64,000 nucleotides of DNA, taken from Acidobacteriota bacterium (GTDB taxonomy: Bacteria; Acidobacteriota; Thermoanaerobaculia; Multivoradales; UBA5704). The first letter of the stretch is position 1. Each line of letters begins with the position of its first letter. Shown piece by piece: positions 4,566-56,433 of this stretch. The position numbers and the translations under genes are program-made. The DNA is taken from the NCBI GenBank assembly GCA_040005235.1, contig JBDTZG010000006.1, positions 89,496-153,495 of the forward strand, written 5' to 3'. The notes under the pieces are model-generated. The model was given only the letters and a program-made list of their open reading frames with translations. It did not search any database and was not told the origin of the DNA.

Positions 4566-6658
4566 CAGCGTCGACCTCCGCCGAGCAGGACGCGAAGGCC
4601 CGGAATCAGCGCGGTCGCGAGCGGCTCGGAGCGAAGGCTCACCTCGGCGTTGCCCCACATGCCGTCATAGAACGCGTACCGGTGGCCGTCGACCGTGAAT
4701 CCCGACTCGGGCAGCCGCGCCCAGGCGAACACCACCGGGCCGGAAATCTGCGCCCCTTCTCCAACCCCCGAGCCGAGCATACGCCGGGCCTCTTCGGGGC
4801 CAAGCACCTCGTCGCTCACCGACTCGATCTGCAACCGCTGGTAGGCATAGCGAAAGCCATCGAGCTCCAGGCGGATCGGCAGTCCCGCCTCTAGCTGCGG
4901 CCGGACCTTGCCGGGCAAAAGCACGGCGACCCGCGGTGCGCCGCCGGTCTGCGCGCCGGTCGAAAGCGATGCGATCACTTGGCCCGGAACCACCTGCTGC
5001 CCGGCGCGGACCCGGACGTCGGCGACCACCCCGGCGCGCGGCGCGCGCACGTCGCGCTCGGCTAGCCGCGATTTCGCCAGCTCGATCTGGCCGGCGAGGC
5101 CGATCAACGCCGATTCGGCGCCCCGATCGCCGGGATCGCGCAATCGGGAGGCGAGTTGCAGCTCGAACTCTCCTTCCAGCTGCGAAAGCTCGGCCGCCTC
5201 CGGTCCGCCGTAGAGATGGACCAGGGTGGCTCCTTCCGCCACCCGGGTGCCGGGCGGCGCCTCGATCGAGGCGACCGTTCCGGCGGCGGTTGCGGTGATC
5301 TCGCTCCGCCCGCCGAGCCGGATGACGGCGACGCCGGTCGAGCGCTCGTGAATCCGGCCGAAGATCAGGAACAAAAGGCCGATTCCGGCCATCCCGAGCA
5401 GCAGCCACGACGCCCAATCGATCCAGACCGGCGAAATGCGCAGAAGATCGCCCTCCTTCCGCGCCGAGGTCATGTGAAAGTCGAGTGCCTCTTCGCGGAA
5501 GACGTCGAGCGCCCCTTCGCGCAGCTGGCGCTCCTCGCGCTTGCCCTGCTCGGCGAGCCGCGATTCGAGGGCGAGCTGGGCGAGAGCTGGGGCCGCCCGC
5601 TCGGCGTAGAGCGCCAACGCCGCGCGATCGGCGGCGGAGAACGGTTCGGCACCCGGATCGCGCAGGGCGGCAAGCACCGCGATGACCGGAGCCGGGACTG
5701 GCGGAGCTCCGGGAACCGCCTGGCCGTCGGGGGACGGCCCGCCCGCGGCGGGATCGCGCACCGCGATCGCGGCGAACGGCCCTTGACCGGAACCTTCCGG
5801 ATCGTCGGCCTCGCGCTCGAAGCGGGGATCGTCCGCCAGCCGCGCCGCCGCGACCGACCGGCCGGTGCGCGCGACGAAGCTGACCACGCCGACCGCCGCG
5901 CTCTCGCGCCGCTCCTCGGCGGACATGCCGCCCCGCCGCTCCCAAAGCACCTCGGTCTCGGCGTCGTACAGCAGTACGTGGGCGCGGGAGGCGCCGATCA
6001 GATCGGCCAGGTCCTCGCGTACCAGATAGGCCACGGCGGCCGGGTCGCGCTCGCCCGCCAGCCGGCCTGCGGCGGTGAGCACCCGCCGCGAAAGCTCCGC
6101 CCGCTCGTCACGCTTTGGCACCGGAAGGGCAACGGTCCCGGCGAGCGCGAGCCCTTCGGCCTGCGGCTTGACCGGGTTCGCGGCCTTGGCCGGCACCCGG
6201 TCGGTGAAGTCGTCCTGGATGCGTAGCGCCCGGAACCGGGAGATCGCGCTTTCGAGCAGAGCGGAAAGATCCTCGCCGCCGATCGACTGCAGGCTGAGGA
6301 AGAAGATCCGGTCCTCGTCGATCAGCTCCTGGAAGACGGCGGGATCGGGGCCGCCGGAGGCGAGAAGATGGAGAGTACGTGCCTCCGGAAAGCGTTCGCG
6401 CAGCGATTCCAGCAGATGCCGCGCCGGGAGACCCGAAAATCCGGGCCCCAAGGCGAGCACCGCCACTTCGCCGTCTGTCTCGGCCCGGGCAAAGCGCGCG
6501 ATGACCTCGGCTTCGGTGCGGGCGGCCTCTACATCCACGTCATCGCCGAAACGCCGACGCTGCGCCTCGGTCTCCGCCTCGGAGAATCCGGCGAGCAGCA
6601 ACGACGCCTCCGGTTCCGGGGCGCGGACCAACCTCATCGTGTCGCGGTTCGTAGCCAC
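4565..6658 (-). CDS. HlyD-family membrane fusion protein with a ~400-aa N-terminal cytoplasmic extension containing a GAF-like domain
   Basis: TM helix WASWLLLGMAGIGLLFLIF followed by HlyD lipoyl-like motifs (APPGTRVAEGATLVHLY; VRAPRAGVVADVRVRAGQQVVPGQVIASL). The N-terminal part has a GAF-like segment (VVSFVARTGRSVAAARLADDPRF ... VIAVLAAL...FSAADRAALALYAERAA). The start could instead be the ATG at 6637. Confidence 0.8.
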   Translation of the reverse strand: MATNRDTMRLVRAPEPEASLLLAGFSEAETEAQRRRFGDDVDVEAARTEAEVIARFARAETDGEVAVLALGPGFSGLPARHLLESLRERFPEARTLHLLASGGPDPAVFQELIDEDRIFFLSLQSIGGEDLSALLESAISRFRALRIQDDFTDRVPAKAANPVKPQAEGLALAGTVALPVPKRDERAELSRRVLTAAGRLAGERDPAAVAYLVREDLADLIGASRAHVLLYDAETEVLWERRGGMSAEERRESAAVGVVSFVARTGRSVAAARLADDPRFEREADDPEGSGQGPFAAIAVRDPAAGGPSPDGQAVPGAPPVPAPVIAVLAALRDPGAEPFSAADRAALALYAERAAPALAQLALESRLAEQGKREERQLREGALDVFREEALDFHMTSARKEGDLLRISPVWIDWASWLLLGMAGIGLLFLIFGRIHERSTGVAVIRLGGRSEITATAAGTVASIEAPPGTRVAEGATLVHLYGGPEAAELSQLEGEFELQLASRLRDPGDRGAESALIGLAGQIELAKSRLAERDVRAPRAGVVADVRVRAGQQVVPGQVIASLSTGAQTGGAPRVAVLLPGKVRPQLEAGLPIRLELDGFRYAYQRLQIESVSDEVLGPEEARRMLGSGVGEGAQISGPVVFAWARLPESGFTVDGHRYAFYDGMWGNAEVSLRSEPLATALIPGLRVLLGGGRR

Positions 6659-11372: not shown

Positions 11373-11765
11373 TTACGCTCCGAACATCGCGGGCGACAGG
11401 CCGATGTCCACGATGCTGCAACCGGGGCGGATGGGAATCCCCAGGCTGCGGGCTTCTTCGAGTACCTTCGAATCGTAGGCGCCGGGATTGAGCCAGACTT
11501 CGCCGGCTTTGGCGGCTTCGATCTCGGAGAGGTAGTCGAGCGTCACCGGCGGCGGCAGGTAGACGCTGATGCGATCGAGCGCTTCGGGGACGTCGGCGAG
11601 CTTCGTGAACGCGGGAAAGCCTTCGATTTCTTTTTCGGTCGGGTTGATCGGAAAGACCTGATAACCCGCGTGGGCGTAGGCCCGAACGCATTTGTTACCG
11701 AACTTGTTGCGGTTCGACGAGGCTCCGAGCACGGCGATGGTCGGCATGTGGATGTTCCTCCTCAA
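11373..11765 (-). CDS. CoA-binding domain protein (YccU/YneT-like)
   Basis: IAVLGASSNRNKFGNKCVRAYAHAGYQVFPINP Rossmann-type CoA-binding motif. Confidence 0.8.
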   Translation of the reverse strand: MRRNIHMPTIAVLGASSNRNKFGNKCVRAYAHAGYQVFPINPTEKEIEGFPAFTKLADVPEALDRISVYLPPPVTLDYLSEIEAAKAGEVWLNPGAYDSKVLEEARSLGIPIRPGCSIVDIGLSPAMFGA

Positions 11766-11785
11766 GATCTAGAACGCGTGGGAGC

Positions 11786-13756
11786 TCACGCGCCTTCCGG
11801 GCGCACGACCATCCGGTCGTCGCCCATTCGGCGCGTGGCGCCCGTCGAGTCGAGATGTTCGAGCAGCGGGATCGCCCATTTGCGCGTTAGTCCGAAATGG
11901 TCCTTGAACTGGCCGACGTTGAAACGTGGCCAGCCGGTTGCGAACAGCCGGCGTTTCAGCTCGGCGACCGCGGAGGCGGCGAGGATCAGGCCGGAGGGGA
12001 GCTTGATCAGCTCACCCTTCGCCACCAGGTGGCGGATCACTCCGTCCACGATCTGGGGTTTGGCGGAGAGCGCCTGCCCTAGGTCGCCGGGCGAAGGGGG
12101 GGCGAGACCGCCGGCATCGAAGCGCGCGAGCACTTGAGTCGACAGGTCCGACTCCTCCGAGGTGAGCTGCGAGCCGCGGCCGGGGAGCGTCACCTGATCG
12201 CCTGAGACCTGAAGGATCTTCTGCTTGGCGAGCCAGTCGAGGTAGACATCCGCCAGCTCCGCGCCGCGACCGCGCACGATGCGGCGTACGGCATCCGCCT
12301 TGGGAATCGCGACCGCCAGCCGGTCGCGCTTGAAATGCTCGGCCAGCACCTTGGCGGCCCGCTCCGCCAGCCGCTGGTAGGTCGCGGGAGCGAGAAATCG
12401 CCGGCCGCGGCCGGGGCCGGGCGGCACGGCGAGGAGCTTGCCTTGGTTGGTCAGTCGGCGGAGATCCGCTTCGATCGCGATTGGGCGCACACCCAGCCTC
12501 CGCGCGAGGTCGTCGATCTCCGCGCCGCGCTCTCCCGACTCCAGCACCCAGAAGCCGAGCGCCGCAGACAGCTCGCCCGAGCTCCCGAGCGCAGCCAGTG
12601 CGGGGGTAAGGAGCCTTCCGCGATAGGGCCGCCAGGCAGGATCGAGGATCTCACCGCCGCCGAGCGTCGCGGCGGGCGAGGGACGCCGGACGACGAATCG
12701 ATCGCCGCGCCGGGCGACGACCGGCGCCGCGAGGCGGATCTCCGCCAGGCCGCGCTCGCCGGGGGCCAGCTCTGCCGGATCGAGCGGACGGAGGCGGCCG
12801 TAGACCTCGCTCGCGAACAGGTGCAGTCGGATCGGCACGAAGCCCGAAAGGGAAGCGGGTGCATCGGGCAGCAGCTCGAAACGGACCAGCAGCCGCGCAC
12901 TCACGGCGAAGGTTCCCGGTTCGACGAGCGTCAACCCACGCGACATCGCTTCGAGCGGCAGTCCGGCGATCTGGAGCGAGGTCCGCTCACCCGCTTCCGC
13001 CAGCTCGCGCGGCTCGCCGTGGACCTGAATGCTCCTCACCCGCACCCGCTCGCCGCCGGGTAGAACCTCCAGCGTGTCGCCGGTCCGGATCGCGCCGCTC
13101 GCGAGTGTGCCGGTGACGATCACCCCGAGGCCCTTGAGGTGGAACGCCCGATCGATCGGCAATCGAGTGGGCAGGCGGGGAAGGAGCGCCGCTTCGGCCG
13201 GCGTCGTTGCCTCGACCGCCGCATCCAGCATCGAAGGCTCGTACTCGGCACGATCGGCGAGCGCCAGGATCGCCGCCTCCAGCTCAAGGATTCCTTCACT
13301 TGTTGTGCTCGACACCGGCAGGATTGGCGACCCGGCAAATGGAGTCGCGGCAAGCAGCTCTTCGACTTCAAGCTGCGCCAGCTCGCGGAGGTCTTCGGTC
13401 ACCAGATCGATCTTGGTGAGCGCGACCAGTCCGTAGGGGATGCCGAGCAGCGAGCAGACGGCCAAATGCTCGCGGGTCTGGGGCTTCACCCCTTCGTCGG
13501 CCGCCACCACCAGCAGCATTGCGCGGATGCCCCCGAGCCCGGCGAGCGCGTTGTGCAGAAACCGCTCGTGGCCGGGGACGTCGACGAAACCGATCTGCAG
13601 ATCGCCGCGGGAGAGGTGGGCGAAGCCGAGATCGATCGTGATTCCCCGGGCTTTCTCCTCCGCCCAGCGATCGCAATCGATGCCGGTGAGCGCCCGGACG
13701 AGCGAGGTCTTGCCGTGGTCGATATGCCCGGCGGTGCCGATCACGAATCTGCGCAT
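11786..13756 (-). CDS. selB: Selenocysteine-specific translation elongation factor SelB
   Basis: [27 protein letters not shown] and LTKIDL GTPase motifs, plus a long winged-helix C-terminal extension (656 aa total). The start overlaps the yqeY stop (TGATG). Confidence 0.92.
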
Positions 13757-14211
13757 CAGCGGGACTGGAGGATCTCTTTGCTGATCCGCGAGAGCGTCGC
13801 CCCGTCCGCGCCTGCGCCGAACTTCTCGCGCAGCGCCTTCATCAGCACCCCCATGCCCGCTCCGGGAGCCAGGCCCTGGGCCGCCGCGATCTCCTCGGCC
13901 GCGGCGCGGATCGTCGCCTCGTCCACCTGGGCCGGAAGGTAGGAGGAGAGGATCTCCTTCTCGCGCAGCTCCTTGGCTGCCAGCTCAGGGCGGTCGCCTT
14001 TGGTGAATTGCTCCGCCGCCTCGTCGCGCTGCTTGATCGCCCGGCGGACCAAGACGACGAATCCGGCCTCATCCACCTCGCCGCTCTTGATCGCCTCGTT
14101 GTTCAACTCCGTGAGCAGCATGCGGAGCGTCGACAACCGCTCTTTCTCGCCCGCCTTCATCGCGGTTCGCAGATCGATTTCCAGCCGGTGTTGCGGAGTC
14201 TCGGTAGCCAT
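13756..14211 (-). CDS. GatB/YqeY domain protein
   Basis: 151 aa starting at the ATG at 14211 ([33 protein letters not shown]...). The rest of listed ORF 13756..15357 is an Arg/Pro-rich out-of-frame extension across pdxA. Confidence 0.85.
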
Positions 14212-14264
14212 GCCGGGATTATCCCGGATTTCGGTCTCGGGTGCCTGGAAGGAAGGGCTGCGCC

Positions 14265-15314
14265 CTACGCGGATGGGGTGAGAGATTTCCGCGGCAGCCT
14301 GCCCGCGATCAGCTCCAGCGTCGTCTCGACCACCTTCTCCAGCGGCCCGGCGTCGGCTTTGCCTTGACCGGCGATGCCGAAGGCGGTGCCGTGGTCGACG
14401 GAGGTACGCAAAAACGGCAGGCCGAGCGTCCAGTTGGTGGCGAGACCGAAGCAGGCGGTCTTGACTGCGATCAGCCCCTGGTCGTGGTACAGCGCGAGCA
14501 CCCAGTCGAACTCGCCCTGACGGGCGCGGGCGAACAGCGAATCCGCGCTCTCGGGACCCTGGACGTCGAGGCCCTGGTTCCGCGCCTGAGCGACGGTCGG
14601 CGCGAGCAGCGCTTCGTCCTCGGCGCCGAGCAGGCCCCCTTCGCCCGCGTGGGGATTCATCCCGGCGAGCGCGATTTTTCCTCCGGCGTGGCGGTTCAGG
14701 CATTGGAGCGCCTGGAGAATGGCCTCGGGCGTCACCGCGTCGAGCGCTTCGCGCAACGGCATGTGGACCGTGAGCAATGCGACCTGGAGATCGGGCGCCA
14801 AGAACGCCATCAAGTAGTCGCGGCCGTAATGTTCGAGACCGCAGACTTCGGCCAGATAGTCGGTATGGCCGACGAAATCGGCGCGGTGGTATTTCGCGAT
14901 CGAGCTCTTGGCAATCGGCGCGGTGACCAGCGCATCGGCGACCCCGGTGCGGGTGAGCTCGATTCCGCAATCCAGCGCCGCCATCGCCCCTGCGGCGTCG
15001 TGGGCGCCGGAATGGCCGAACGAAATGGGCCGATTCGGTTCGCCGATCGGGTCGAGCACGGCGATCGAACCGTTCGGGTCGGCGAATGCCGCGAGATCCT
15101 CCCGTTTGGACAGGGAGCCGAGATAGGTCAGCCGCTCCCAGGGGGCATCGGCCAGGACGGGACGGAGCGCTTCGAGCGCCGCGCGCTCCGCCACCAGCAG
15201 CGGCTGCCAGGCCTCCGAGCCCGCGCCCGAAAGGAGCTTCAGGAGGATTTCGGGGCCGATACCCGCGGGATCGCCCTGGGTGAGGGCGAGGATGGGGCGC
15301 GCAAGCTTGCTCAC
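14265..15314 (-). CDS. pdxA: 4-hydroxythreonine-4-phosphate dehydrogenase PdxA
   Basis: LTQGDPAGIGPEI, GHTDYLA and SVDHGTAFGIAG motifs. GTG start at 15314 forms a GTGA overlap with the upstream gene's stop. Confidence 0.9.
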   Translation of the reverse strand: MSKLARPILALTQGDPAGIGPEILLKLLSGAGSEAWQPLLVAERAALEALRPVLADAPWERLTYLGSLSKREDLAAFADPNGSIAVLDPIGEPNRPISFGHSGAHDAAGAMAALDCGIELTRTGVADALVTAPIAKSSIAKYHRADFVGHTDYLAEVCGLEHYGRDYLMAFLAPDLQVALLTVHMPLREALDAVTPEAILQALQCLNRHAGGKIALAGMNPHAGEGGLLGAEDEALLAPTVAQARNQGLDVQGPESADSLFARARQGEFDWVLALYHDQGLIAVKTACFGLATNWTLGLPFLRTSVDHGTAFGIAGQGKADAGPLEKVVETTLELIAGRLPRKSLTPSA

Positions 15315-15682
15315 TCCGCGGGAACCCGGGAGACCGCGGCCCGCTTGCGGGTCCCACGTTGCTGCTCTCGCAGCTCCTCTTCCTTGAACAGGTAGCGGAT
15401 GTGGTGCTTCTGGATCAGGAGGTTCGGTCCCTGGTGGCGGTTCAACTTGATCGCCCCCTTGTCGTACCACTCGATCCAACCGCGCAGCTCCTCGTCGTTG
15501 TCGAGGATGACCACGATCGGCGTCTTTGCCGCCATCTGCTTCAGGTAATAGAACTCCTCGGCGTTGGTCTGCTCCGGGGGGCTCTGCTTACGGCGCAGGC
15601 TGCGCGCGGGTGTGTCTTTCTTGATGTCGTTCATGTCGGGACGAATCAGTTTTCGAATAGCCATAGGGGAGTGGAGGCTCAC
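15311..15682 (-). CDS. Sm-like / Hfq-fold RNA-binding protein (putative)
   Basis: The core TPIVVILDNDEELRGWIEWYDKGAIKLNRHQGPNLLIQKHHIRYLFK follows the Sm1-Sm2 pattern (PV.V.L.NG..L.G.I..FD...I.L.......L.YKHAI). The start is uncertain (15682 or the ATG at 15664). Confidence 0.5.
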   Translation of the reverse strand: MSLHSPMAIRKLIRPDMNDIKKDTPARSLRRKQSPPEQTNAEEFYYLKQMAAKTPIVVILDNDEELRGWIEWYDKGAIKLNRHQGPNLLIQKHHIRYLFKEEELREQQRGTRKRAAVSRVPAE

Positions 15683-30874: not shown

Positions 30875-31909
30875 ATGATCGGCAGAAAGAAGAACGGCGG
30901 CGGCGCAGCCGTGGCGGCGGATTCGGCCACCCTGCACGACCCCAATCATGACCCCAACCGCGACCTCGGTTTCGGCGCGGTGGTCTCGCGCGAGAGCCGG
31001 CAGCGGCTGCTCAACCGGAACGGCGGCTTCAACGTCGTCCGCGAGGGGCTCGGCTTCTGGCAGTCGCTCTCGCCCTATCATCTGCTGCTCACCACCAGCT
31101 GGCCGCGGTTCCTCGGCTTGGTCCTGCTCACCTACCTCGGGATCAACGCGCTGTTCGCCGCCGCGTTCTTCGCCTGCGGCCCCGCCGCCCTGTCCGGAAT
31201 CGACCACTCGGCCAGCGCGATGGGCCTCTTCCTCCAGGATTTCTTCTTCAGCGTCGAGACCTTCGCTACGATCGGCTATGGCACGCTCAGCCCCCAGAGC
31301 CTCGCCGCGAACTGGCTGATGACCATCGAATCGCTCGCCGGCTTGCTCGGCTTCGCGCTCGCCACCGGTTTGGTGTTCTCGCGCTTCGCGCGGCCGGGGG
31401 CCTGCATCCTGTTTTCCGACAAGGCGATCTTCGCGCCTTTCCGCGACGGCACCGCGCTCATGTTCCGGATCGCCAACCGGCGTTCGACCCAGCTGTTCGA
31501 GGTGAAGACCAAGGTGATCATGGGCCGGTTCCGTAAAGGCACCCCCGGGGCCGGCCGGGAGTTTCTACCGCTCACCCTTGAGCGCGACCGGGTGGATTTC
31601 TTCCCGCTCTCCTGGACGCTGGTCCACCCGATCGACCCTTCGAGCCCGATGTGGGGTTGGACCTACGAACAGATCCAAGCCGCCAGCACCGAGCTGCTGG
31701 TGATGATCCAGGGCTTCGACGAGACGTTCTCGCAAACGGTCCATACCCGCTCGTCGTACACCGCAGACGAGATGATCTGGGGCGCCCGCTTCACCAACCT
31801 GTTCAACCCGCCGATGCCCGACGGCACCATCTCGATCGACGTCGGTAAGCTCCACGACACCGAGCCCGCCGAACTGCCGGTTCCACTCGCCCTGCCGGAA
31901 AGCCCGTAA
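30875..31909 (+). CDS. Inward-rectifier-type K+ channel (KirBac-like)
   Basis: Two TM helices flank the pore helix and TIGYG selectivity filter (SVETFATIGYGTLSP), followed by a beta-rich cytoplasmic domain. ATG at 30875. Confidence 0.85.
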   Translation: MIGRKKNGGGAAVAADSATLHDPNHDPNRDLGFGAVVSRESRQRLLNRNGGFNVVREGLGFWQSLSPYHLLLTTSWPRFLGLVLLTYLGINALFAAAFFACGPAALSGIDHSASAMGLFLQDFFFSVETFATIGYGTLSPQSLAANWLMTIESLAGLLGFALATGLVFSRFARPGACILFSDKAIFAPFRDGTALMFRIANRRSTQLFEVKTKVIMGRFRKGTPGAGREFLPLTLERDRVDFFPLSWTLVHPIDPSSPMWGWTYEQIQAASTELLVMIQGFDETFSQTVHTRSSYTADEMIWGARFTNLFNPPMPDGTISIDVGKLHDTEPAELPVPLALPESP

Positions 31910-53823: not shown

Positions 53824-54162
53824 ATGAGTCGCTCGAAGCTCTTGCCGCTGTTCCTGTTTGTCGTCGTCCTCGCGTTGTTCGCCCTGCCGGGCTCCGCCGC
53901 TTCCGCCCCGGTGGCTCCGGCCGCCGCTCCGAGCGTCGCGGCACCGGCCTGCGGGATTGACGCGGGTTTGCTGTTTTCGACCGGTGTGAGCGCGGCGCCC
54001 AAGTCGTGCGGCGCGGCCCCGGCGGCGCAGGTCGGAGTGCCGGAGCCCGAGTTCCTCGCCAAGCGGCTTGGCTACTGCCATTGCGGCTGCTCATCCGCGC
54101 GGTGTCAGACCAGCGCGGATTGCGGCGGCTCCTCGTGCGACCCCTTCATCAGCTGCTGCTGA
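53824..54162 (+). CDS. Small secreted protein with a Cys/Ser/Thr-rich C-terminal tail
   Basis: GGGGGAGAAGGGAAAA purine tract upstream of the ATG. Sec signal MSRSKLLPLFLFVVVLALFALPGSAASA, an Ala/Pro-rich middle, and the tail LGYCHCGCSSARCQTSADCGGSSCDPFISCC (8 Cys, 7 Ser/Thr in the last 28 aa). Confidence 0.6.
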   Translation: MSRSKLLPLFLFVVVLALFALPGSAASAPVAPAAAPSVAAPACGIDAGLLFSTGVSAAPKSCGAAPAAQVGVPEPEFLAKRLGYCHCGCSSARCQTSADCGGSSCDPFISCC

Positions 54163-54217: not shown

Positions 54218-55336
54218 CTACCCTTGATTCAGATCCATCGGCCGCCCTTTCCAGGGCGCCAGCCGGCCGCGCCGGTGGTCGAGGCCGCAGAGGATCGCGA
54301 GGGCCGCGAGCGCCAGGGCGTCGAACGGGTAGATCAGTCCATAAACGGGCGAGTTGTCGCTGCCCCGGCGGACGATCCCGGAGGCTGCCGCACCCGCCGT
54401 CCAGACCAGAAGAGCCGCCGGCCAGTCAGCCCTTAAAAGCGCGGCGACGAAAATTGTCACGGGAATAGCAAGCACTGTCACCAGGCGCGCGAGCCGGGCG
54501 GTCTCCCCACCGAATAGGCAGCCCAGGATGCGCCGCCAGCCGGCCCAAGTCTCGCGTCCCCCGAGATACATGCGCACCGAGAGGAGCGGCGAACGGAAAA
54601 ACGCGGTGCGGAAGCCCTCCGCCTGAAGTGCGGCGGCGATCGCCACGTCGTCCATCGGAGCACCCTTTACCCGGTCAAAGCCGCCGCAGGCATCCCAGGC
54701 ATCTTTTCGCAAGAGTAAGAATTGCCCGTTGGCGACCGCGGGACCTTCGCCGCGCGCGGAGTTCCGCCAATCTCCGAGCAGGAAATCGAGATACGCATAG
54801 GCGACCGGTGTGAGCAGGTTCTCGCCCAGGCCAAGGACTTCTTGGCGGCCGGCAATCGAGAGCAAAGCGAAGCCGCCGCTTTCTGCCGCGGCGAGTGCTC
54901 GGGCGAGCAGCTCCGGCGCGGAGCGCGCGTCGGCGTCGGTGGTCAGAATCCAAGGCGCGTCGAGCCCGCGCCAGCCGAAATCGAGTGCGTGGACCTTGCC
55001 GCGCCAGCCCGCCGGGAGGGGCTCTACCGGGAGGATCTCCACCCGCGGCTCGGCATCGAATCGGCCGTGCGCAAGCGCCGCCGTCCGGTCGGTCGAGCCG
55101 TCGTCGAGGATGCGGATCCGCGGCCCGGCGGTCTGCAGGAGGAGCGCTTCGACGCAAGGCACGACGTTTCGCTCTTCATTGCGAACTGGCACGAGGACTG
55201 CATTGGAATTGGAAGCGGGAGCTGCGGGAGCGGCGGGAGGGAGCGCGGGGGCCGAACTTCGACGCTCCTCGATCGCGGCCGCGGCGGCCAGCAAGCAGCC
55301 CGCGGCGCATAGAGCGGAAAGGAAGAGCAGGCTCAT
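54218..55336 (-). CDS. Membrane-anchored family 2 glycosyltransferase
   Basis: N-terminal TM helix, VLVPVRNEE, ILDDGSTDRT, TDADA (DxD) and C-terminal TM helices. Confidence 0.8.
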   Translation of the reverse strand: MSLLFLSALCAAGCLLAAAAAIEERRSSAPALPPAAPAAPASNSNAVLVPVRNEERNVVPCVEALLLQTAGPRIRILDDGSTDRTAALAHGRFDAEPRVEILPVEPLPAGWRGKVHALDFGWRGLDAPWILTTDADARSAPELLARALAAAESGGFALLSIAGRQEVLGLGENLLTPVAYAYLDFLLGDWRNSARGEGPAVANGQFLLLRKDAWDACGGFDRVKGAPMDDVAIAAALQAEGFRTAFFRSPLLSVRMYLGGRETWAGWRRILGCLFGGETARLARLVTVLAIPVTIFVAALLRADWPAALLVWTAGAAASGIVRRGSDNSPVYGLIYPFDALALAALAILCGLDHRRGRLAPWKGRPMDLNQG

Positions 55337-55397
55337 GAGAGATAGGAAGCGCGCACCAGGTGCCTACGAGTCCGCCCTGCGAGGTGCGCGCTTCGGG

Positions 55398-55631
55398 TCA
55401 GGCGAGCTTCGCTTGGAGGGCGTCGGCCACTTCGCCCGGCGTGGGGAAACGACCTTCCTGCTTCTTCGAGAAGATGACCTGATCGTCGAGGGTGACGTGG
55501 AAGGTGCCGCCGTGCCCTTTGACCAGCTGGGCTTCGAGGCCGAACCTGGTTCTAATTTCGTCCGCCAGACCGACGGCTCGGGGAAGATAGCCTCAGGCAG
55601 TACAGTATTCGATGACAAATCTATGATCCAT
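55398..55631 (-). CDS. SelW/Rdx-family selenoprotein with in-frame UGA (Sec) at 55595-55593
   Basis: Hand translation of the minus strand gives MDHRFVIEYCTA-U-GYLPRAVGLADEIRTRFGLEAQLVKGHGGTFHVTLDDQVIFSKKQEGRFPTPGEVADALQAKLA*. This shows the CxxU redox motif in the canonical IEYCxxUGY context and the Rdx hallmarks G.F.V......IFSK...GRFP. An AAGGAG SD lies 8 nt upstream of the ATG at 55631. selB is in the same window. The gene is absent from the ORF track because of the TGA. Confidence 0.8.
55535..55580 (-). promoter_or_regulatory. Candidate bacterial SECIS hairpin
   Basis: Starting 12 nt after the UGA, CGAGCCGUCGGUCUGG-(15 nt)-CCAGGUUCGGCCUCG can form an imperfect ~14-bp stem (4+3+7 bp, including G-U pairs, a bulge and an internal loop). 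Folded by eye only. Confidence 0.45.
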
Positions 55632-56085
55632 CCAAATTCTCCTTTCGTACGGATTATATAGAGAGGACGTCGGTTCCGCCCTTGCTGCCCGTCAAAGAGC
55701 GCCGCGCCGGAAAATTCTCCCGGTACCGGTCGAAAAGGCCTGCCGAAATGCCCCGTCGATACGGCGGGAATACTGAAACTCGTTTGTGGTTGTATCTATG
55801 GTGCGTGTCGATAGTCAAAGCGAGACAAACTTCCGAAGAAAGTTCACTTACCCCCTAGATTTCTGGTTCAGAGTCTCTATAATATCGTTTCAACGATCGG
55901 AGAAAGGCGCCGAAGCAAGGGCAGTTCTCGGGTCGTTGGCGGGGACTCAGGCAGGGTCGTGGAGGGGTGCGTTACCGGTTACATCGGTCGAATTGGCGGT
56001 CGGATTGTGGCGTCACCGAACGTCTGGTGGGATTTGAAGACGAGACGTATTCCGTACAAACTTTATGACCTCGGAGGTAGTAAAA

Positions 56086-56433
56086 ATGAAATCCACCCCA
56101 GCGAACATGTCCACGAAAGAGATGGCTCAGATCCGGCAGAACCTCGAAGGGACGCCGGACATCGAGGAAGCGGCCGAGCTGATGAACCTGGCGGGCAATT
56201 CGACCCGCTTGAAGCTCCTCTATCTTCTGGACAACATGAAAGAGCTCTGCGTGTGCGATCTGGCCGAGATGCTCGGCGTGTCGGTCTCCGCAGTCTCGCA
56301 GCACCTGGCGAAGCTCAAGGCCTACGGGCTCGTCGCGCCGCGCCGCGACGCTCAGACGATCTACTACCGTCTGACCGAGCACCCGTTCAACGCGAAGCTC
56401 CGCGACAACTTTTTTCGTCAGTTCCAGGTCTGA
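56086..56433 (+). CDS. ArsR/SmtB-family metalloregulator
   Basis: GGAGG SD upstream of the ATG at 56086. ELCVCDLAEMLGVSVSAVSQHLAKLK contains the CVC metal site and the HTH. Confidence 0.88.
   Translation: MKSTPANMSTKEMAQIRQNLEGTPDIEEAAELMNLAGNSTRLKLLYLLDNMKELCVCDLAEMLGVSVSAVSQHLAKLKAYGLVAPRRDAQTIYYRLTEHPFNAKLRDNFFRQFQV

Follow-up and report, generated by a model that had tools for sequence, protein, structure and literature searches.

A probable SelW-like selenoprotein gene, with an in-frame UGA and a conserved candidate SECIS hairpin, in a Thermoanaerobaculia-like acidobacterium

The minus strand of the 64,000-nucleotide stretch of DNA analysed here (64 kb, hereafter the window) carries at positions 55398-55631 a gene of 77 codons that very probably encodes a SelW-like (Rdx family) selenoprotein, with selenocysteine (Sec) at codon 13 and a TGA stop codon at its end. 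The in-frame UGA is followed by a 17-nt mini-hairpin at 55577-55561 (-) which, judging from the comparison of related loci, is likely to be the SECIS element of this selW gene. SelW-like proteins are a long-established family of bacterial selenoproteins, and the window gene is a previously uncalled member of it.

Read on the minus strand from the ATG at 55631, the translation is MDHRFVIEYCTA*GYLPRAV...AKLA*, with an internal TGA at 55595-55593 and 64 sense codons between it and the final TGA (55400-55398), in full agreement with the initial annotation. The first TGA lies near the N-terminus in the context IEYCTAUGY, and would be the Sec codon of a CxxU redox motif, Cys10-Thr-Ala-Sec13 (55593-55604, -). 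Gene callers missed selW because Sec is written as a UGA stop codon: the ORF list holds nothing in its frame and shows over it, as had been pointed out before, a sole 84-aa ORF with a TTG start in another frame (55364-55618, -). Concerning the signals upstream, a Shine-Dalgarno sequence, GAAAGGAG, is located at 55639-55646 (-), 7 nt from the ATG, and is kept in upstream alignments of related loci; the AAGGAG reported earlier is indeed there (55644-55639), although its distance from the ATG had been given as 8 nt. In the same alignments a TATAAT is conserved about 20 nt 5' of this Shine-Dalgarno (55653-55658, -), and in most of 27 aligned loci TATAAT, TAGAAT or TATACT recurs at a constant distance from it, so that conservation suggests a putative -10 box of a selW promoter. 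A consensus promoter scan gave no full -35/-10 pair upstream of selW.

Family membership was evaluated with U read as C. The window protein reached 71.4 bits on the Pfam Rdx model PF10262 (E = 7e-20, cut-off 22.6), 59.9 bits on TIGR02174 (cut-off 34.2) and 90.9 bits on the NCBIfam equivalog NF041051, "SelT/SelW/SelH family (seleno)protein" (cut-off 88); these scores, all above the curated cut-offs, bear out the SelW-like identity first proposed from motifs, and C10-T-A-U13 is the CxxC/CxxU motif, placed behind the first beta-strand, by which the Rdx or SelT/SelW/SelH family is recognized. The 64 residues after the TGA score by themselves 49.2 bits on Pfam Rdx (E = 6e-13), and the region beyond the TGA is therefore protein-coding. 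Sequence matches in the PDB were 3DEX (8e-13), 2FA8, 2OBK, 2OKA, 2OJL, 2P0G and human MIEN1 (2LJK). The Rdx structures, such as 3DEX (SAV_2001) and 2FA8 (Atu0228), are homologous over residues 3-71, and their CxxC aligns to the CxxU of the window; these two top aligned matches have the CxxC motif, whereas the window has CxxU, and the chains exceed the window protein in length by about 25-30 residues. Homology to solved Rdx structures implies that the window protein would share their thioredoxin-like fold. A word-index protein search with the U-to-C protein returned no match, which reflects the sensitivity limit of that search for a 77-aa query. We also observed that the segment GGTFHVTLDDQVIF gives multi-stretch matches (13 matched stretches) to a 1367-aa protein, P0001, and matches the "Cake" designs of the PDB (6TJF/6TJE; Cake5, Cake6). 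These are probably motif-level similarities and not homology, and they call for caution when matches to the short SelW family are mined.

Relatives were collected with HMMER, searching exhaustively with the residues after the UGA as query; this yielded 305 cluster representatives. Many of these are fragments of 51-64 aa that start at query residues 9-10, as expected from gene callers stopping at the Sec-UGA, and the full-length representatives carry CxxC or "CxxW". DNA look-ups revealed that the W of the "CxxW" homologues is a TGA translated under another genetic code. We then scanned for loci in one genome per species, using a narrower alignment (A2) since a first one (A1) was too diverse for locus finding; 261 relatives were found, and the best 80 loci were analysed. 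Almost all of these 80 belong to metagenome-assembled genomes (MAGs) of Thermoanaerobaculia, which make up the majority, Holophagales or other Acidobacteriota, the closest being JBBSBW010000016.1 with 91% identity; the window can thus be assigned to a Thermoanaerobaculia-like acidobacterium. Across the best 80 of the 261, the conserved pattern is IEYCxx*[N/G]YxPRAAGLA...GGVFEV...FSKK..GRFP.

These loci bear directly on the idea that the window gene is a pseudogene, that is, a CxxC Rdx gene in which a nonsense mutation changed TGC/TGT to TGA, so that translation stops after 12 codons. A single base change turns a Cys codon into TGA, Cys forms of the SelW family exist and the window hairpin is weak in isolation. 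However, among the best 80 of 261 loci, which come from many genera, the same TGA stands at the CxxU codon in 80/80, both its flanks are conserved and the frame is kept through it; the protein is conserved over the 64 codons after the TGA, the part that scores 49 bits on Rdx, and a dedicated SelB is encoded nearby. The initial annotation had proposed that a true stop would leave no conservation downstream, and the sequence after the TGA proved both conserved and coding. On this sequence evidence the pseudogene reading appears effectively refuted by the UGA conserved in 80/80 of these loci, and we regard it as scarcely credible.

The Sec reading also has to be weighed against one in which the UGA is decoded as Trp, Cys or Gly, by a near-cognate tRNA or a reassigned code, the 17-mer being then a matter of peptide and codon-usage constraint only. 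Code 4 has been applied to some homologous contigs, giving the "CxxW" proteins mentioned above, and selA, selD and selC are not seen in the 64-kb window. In the window, however, TGA is an ordinary stop in at least 8 genes, including those for SelB, ArsR, PotA, PotB and selW itself, and the code is therefore not reassigned; taken together, the conserved UGA, the conservation on both sides and the normal TGA stops exclude global recoding as well as a pseudogene. Moreover, the redox Cys of CxxC homologues was found at the U position, forming the classic Sec/Cys pair. A SelB is present. In the hairpin described below, Gly+8 is written GGT against the local preference for GGC, exactly where the loop needs GU; stem changes are compensated; and the codons at +6 to +10 differ from the Sec consensus in the few CxxC homologues examined. 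Decoding without Sec is thus very improbable in our judgement.

Two of the relatives deserve separate mention. One Thermoanaerobaculia MAG (L021) holds tandem paralogues at 5018-5260 and 5359-5610, a Cys form (CVAC) together with a Sec form (CGMU), and in the Cys copy the loop-closing pair of the hairpin is lost (GCG for GCC, uncompensated). In a metagenome contig (L089, positions 268-492; ERZ25083853 NODE_105292; protein P0018) the SelW-like redox motif reads TGA-GGA-ATG-TGA, which makes it a variant with two selenocysteines (UxxU); one hairpin only, GCGGCU-AGUUU-AGCGGC, lies downstream. The same motif occurs in P0066. In a 2022 review UxxU is given for selenoproteins of the Prx-like and mercuric-reductase-like kinds, and for SelW-like proteins CxxU only.

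The candidate SECIS of the window has the sequence GCCGUC-GGUCU-GGCGGA, and the consensus is GCCGCC-GGUCU-GGCGGC, with the stem starting 15 nt and the loop 21 nt after the UGA. We aligned the hairpin region of 81 sequences without gaps over 75 columns; the distance from UGA to loop is an invariant 21 nt in all of them, and columns 31-47, corresponding to window positions 55577-55561, are nearly invariant in nucleotides. Codon entropy was computed among the sequences that share the majority residue. At +6 to +10 (A-A-G-L-A), the only codons where it drops, it is 0.17, 0.10, 0.21, 0.43 and 0.17 bits, against 1.67 bits at Pro+4, 2.19 at Arg+5, 1.60 at Ala+11 and 1.44-1.62 in the other Gly columns. 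These other columns favour GGC, while at Gly+8 the codon is GGT in 58/60 sequences. It should be noted that part of the nucleotide conservation could stem from the conserved A-A-G-L-A peptide plus codon bias.

The pairing itself is also conserved. The core 5 bp of the mini-hairpin pair in 81/81 sequences, through stem changes from C-G to U-A (L040, L058), to G-C (L023) or to U-G (the window and L051), and RNAalifold found the same helix independently, together with a GUC triloop closed by G-U or A-U. The set was then extended by six Sec homologues of greater divergence, 5 of them from contigs of 28-43% GC; in 4 of these 5 low-GC homologues the hairpin is kept at the same position with U-A replacing C-G, while L093 (peptide AQVVA) is without it. 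Over the resulting 87 sequences there are 7 compensatory (double-sided) changes at two stem positions, a number reached by 0/500 shuffles; covariation is confined to two positions because the element is so conserved. A strict pattern, consisting of an open-frame UGA followed after 14-29 nt by a stem of at least 5 bp with an RGUYU loop, gave 79 matches in 708 kb on both strands (1.4 Mb), namely 77 SelW sites and 2 junk frames. By contrast, 5 true CxxC homologues have other residues and codons than the Sec forms at +6 to +10, Ala+6 being GCG in 3/5 versus 0/81 Sec forms; their stem is mostly broken, and 2 keep a fossil-like hairpin. A SECIS-like fold after the UGA, which the initial annotation had anticipated, thus exists with comparative support from the entropy trough, the pairing, RNAalifold and the compensatory changes.

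The element that the initial annotation had put forward is, however, a different one: an imperfect hairpin of 46 nt at 55580-55535, within whose 5' part the shorter, conserved mini-hairpin lies. That this longer hairpin, or some other extended structure, is the SECIS in place of the 17-nt mini-hairpin could find support in the minimum free energy (MFE) fold, where UGAGGC can pair with a downstream GCCUCG, GCCUUG or GCCUUA in the window and L001-L003, forming an enclosing lower stem. Nevertheless, over the 81 sequences the long helix pairs in only 65.6% of the cells, a level reached by 481/500 shuffles; it is absent from the RNAalifold prediction; and most relatives have AAC after the UGA, so that the lower stem cannot form there. 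We therefore consider an extended SECIS a most improbable alternative, and the mini-hairpin remains the likely element. Elsewhere in the window, further UGA-plus-hairpin candidates at 30949 (+), 38041 (+), 35400 (-) and 2247 (-) were rejected, as their frames are non-coding (GC3 of 0.44-0.76) and translate into junk. Rfam gave nothing in the window at gathering thresholds, and only chance-level matches at relaxed thresholds in 55380-56120.

We compared the mini-hairpin with the published bSECIS model, which describes an apical loop of 3-9 nt on an upper stem of 4-16 bp, a G in the first two loop positions within N1-G-[G|U]-N-N2 where N1 and N2 are able to pair, a distance of 16-37 nt from UGA to apical loop and an MFE of at most -7.5 kcal/mol (PMC13188914). 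The selW hairpin has the 5-nt loop GGUCU, in which N1 is G and N2 is U, on a stem of 5 bp (window) or 6 bp (consensus), and its 21 nt from UGA to loop fall within the range of the model. All 81 sequences have U at position 41 and either G or A at position 37, and the two can therefore pair as G-U or A-U. The hairpin MFE is -11.6 kcal/mol for the consensus and -9.5 for L001, and -6.8 for the window, slightly short of the -7.5 kcal/mol of the model. With 5 bp, one of them U-G, the window has the weakest hairpin in the set, owing to the U-G wobble, which comes with Val in place of Ala at +7, and to the missing sixth pair. Single-sequence folds of the 69-nt context (-21 kcal/mol) and the 132-nt context were no stabler than shuffles (z = 0.16 and 0.74). 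Stability by folding alone does not reveal this SECIS, and the comparison among loci is decisive.

The best-known reference is the SECIS of E. coli fdhF, whose minimal SelB-binding hairpin we take to be GGUUGCAGGUCUGCACC; of 5426 E. coli genomes, 5419 carry exactly this sequence under fdhF. Both elements lie in the coding region just past the UGA and combine a short stem with a loop containing GGUC(U), and the hexamer GGUCUG is common to the two. They differ in the distance of the loop from the UGA, 21 nt in selW and 18 nt in fdhF, that is, one codon more, and in the stem, which in selW is a GC-rich helix of 5-6 bp without the bulged U of fdhF, a nucleotide important for SelB binding in that SECIS. 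Also, the lower stem of the fdhF element, which includes the UGA, is not conserved in the selW loci.

Regarding the Sec machinery, SelB, the Sec-specific elongation factor, is encoded at 11786-13756 (-), 42 kb from selW, where the initial annotation had placed it: the protein scores 338.9 bits on TIGR00475 against a cut-off of 242 and includes the SECIS-binding domain, the C-terminal winged helix (Pfam SelB-wing_3) at residues 610-649, plus Beta-barrel_SelB. selA, selD and tRNA-Sec were not found in the 64-kb window, in which neither a tRNA nor an Rfam match was detected and ten mid-size ORFs proved to encode other enzymes. In its region (11373-15479, -) selB does not stand beside selA; a CoA-binding-domain protein is downstream and, as read from translations alone, a GatB/YqeY-like protein and pdxA are upstream.

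From these elements the following mechanism can be proposed. The mRNA would start from a promoter just upstream, and translation from the ATG at 55631. At UGA13, SelB with its Sec-tRNA(Sec) would bind through the C-terminal winged helix to the hairpin at 55577-55561 (stem CCGUC/GGCGG, loop GGUCU), 15 nt downstream, and selenocysteine would be inserted in place of termination. The terminal UGA of selW is without such a hairpin, and there translation would stop. The product would most likely be a small thiol/selenol oxidoreductase with a Cys10-x-x-Sec13 centre.

The membrane GT2 glycosyltransferase (54218-55336, -; Pfam Glycos_transf_2 and Glyco_transf_21) is co-oriented with selW and starts 61 nt past its stop, in agreement with the initial annotation, and is a putative operon partner. 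No record identical to the GT2 protein came up in an exact look-up. Among the best 80 of 261 loci, GT2 is directly downstream of selW on the same strand in 51, its start lying usually a few to about 25 nt from the selW stop. This short spacing indicates that selW and GT2 form an operon, and from the sequences selW appears to head a conserved one. In the 61-nt spacer of the window (55345-55392, -) there is a perfect 9-bp inverted repeat, GCGCGCACC...GGTGCGCGC, with no U-run after it; L001 has a counterpart of 8 bp and L004 a related one, and other loci have almost no spacer. The repeat is confined to the subclade of the window and is thus not a general feature. Past GT2, an ORF of 112 aa at 53824-54162 (+) has an N-terminus resembling a signal peptide and is rich in Cys at its C-terminus (CHCGCSSARCQTSADCGGSSCDPFISCC); it gave no Pfam match, and a homologue was found only in L003 (65%).

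On the other side, divergent from selW as stated before, lies a gene for an ArsR/SmtB metalloregulator with an ELCVCDL motif (56065-56433, +; NF033788, 83.7 bits), whose true start is probably the ATG at 56086, which a conserved GGAGG precedes. ArsR is near selW in 42 of the best 80 of 261 loci and is there 82-100% identical, mostly at least 89%, while SelW and GT2 of the same loci are only about 50-57% identical; the regulator thus appears unusually constrained. An MBL-fold hydrolase is nearby in 41 of these 80 loci.

The intergenic block between ArsR and selW contains further conserved sequences. On the ArsR strand, at about 55860-55900, there is a conserved TATAAT with a T[AG]G[AC]TT -35-like hexamer 17 nt upstream, and in most loci this TATAAT overlaps a dyad, ACAATC-TC-GATTGT; the region is plausibly an autoregulated arsR promoter and operator. 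In minus-strand reading, about 55790-55850 holds an A/T-rich tract, TTGTCTCGCTT, about 14 nt and CGCACC. Over about 27 loci the corresponding pattern is TTGTCCCG[CT]T-N13-15-GCACC[TA]TA after the A/T-rich tract, 150-240 nt upstream of the Sec-UGA, with small variable hairpins between the TTGTCCCG and GCACC motifs. For the block as a whole RNAalifold gave no consensus structure on either strand, and there was no Rfam match. We also considered a small ORF there and discarded it, since the A/T-rich tract carries indels that disrupt the frame from one locus to another.

What SelW does in this context can be approached from its neighbours. Since selW would be co-transcribed with GT2 in most relatives, the redox partner or pathway of SelW is probably tied to GT2. 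The latter has sub-threshold similarity to CruG and HpnB, lipid-directed GT2 enzymes, and with this distant likeness it probably acts on a lipid. A bolder proposal, to which we give little weight, is that SelW is the dedicated redox partner of GT2 and not a free-standing antioxidant, the two belonging to a metalloid/thiol-stress module under the ELCVCDL-type ArsR repressor. If true, this SelW-GT2-ArsR module would for the first time give a bacterial SelW-like protein a physiological role and a partner.

In the literature, 10 SelW-like selenoproteins were counted in sequenced bacterial genomes by Zhang et al. 2006 (PMC1794560), who described a family with few or no Cys homologues in Sec-using organisms and since whose work selenoproteins in Acidobacteria have been on record. 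The 2022 review lists "SELENOW-like protein, pfam10262, CxxU". In Campylobacter jejuni, Ribo-seq and MS data support translation of selW (80 aa) beyond the UGA. The window gene resembles that of C. jejuni in the domain, in the CxxU near the N-terminus, in length (77 vs about 80 aa) and in having had its UGA taken as a stop, and differs in its host, a Thermoanaerobaculia-like acidobacterium, and in forming a putative selW-GT2 operon beside ArsR. Our literature search found no paper linking Thermoanaerobaculia with selenocysteine and no description of a selW-GT2 operon beside ArsR.

The present finding does not overturn current understanding, and a specialist would not be surprised by it. For annotation, it recovers a real gene overlooked by standard ORF callers, and it indicates that in public protein sets many relatives appear as fragments of 51-64 aa or as "CxxW" mistranslations; the SECIS consensus, UGA, 15 nt, GCCGCC-GGUCU-GGCGGC, could be used for automatic annotation in Acidobacteriota and beyond. 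The gene also offers a case of dual constraint, in which the codons of a peptide motif, A-A-G/S-L-A, would double as the hairpin that SelB binds. Use of selenocysteine by this Thermoanaerobaculia lineage is indicated, the insertion itself being what the conserved UGA, hairpin and SelB point to. The conserved selW-GT2-ArsR neighbourhood opens a testable route to what bacterial SelW-like proteins do, and the link of SelW with GT2 or ArsR may prove to be a functional one.
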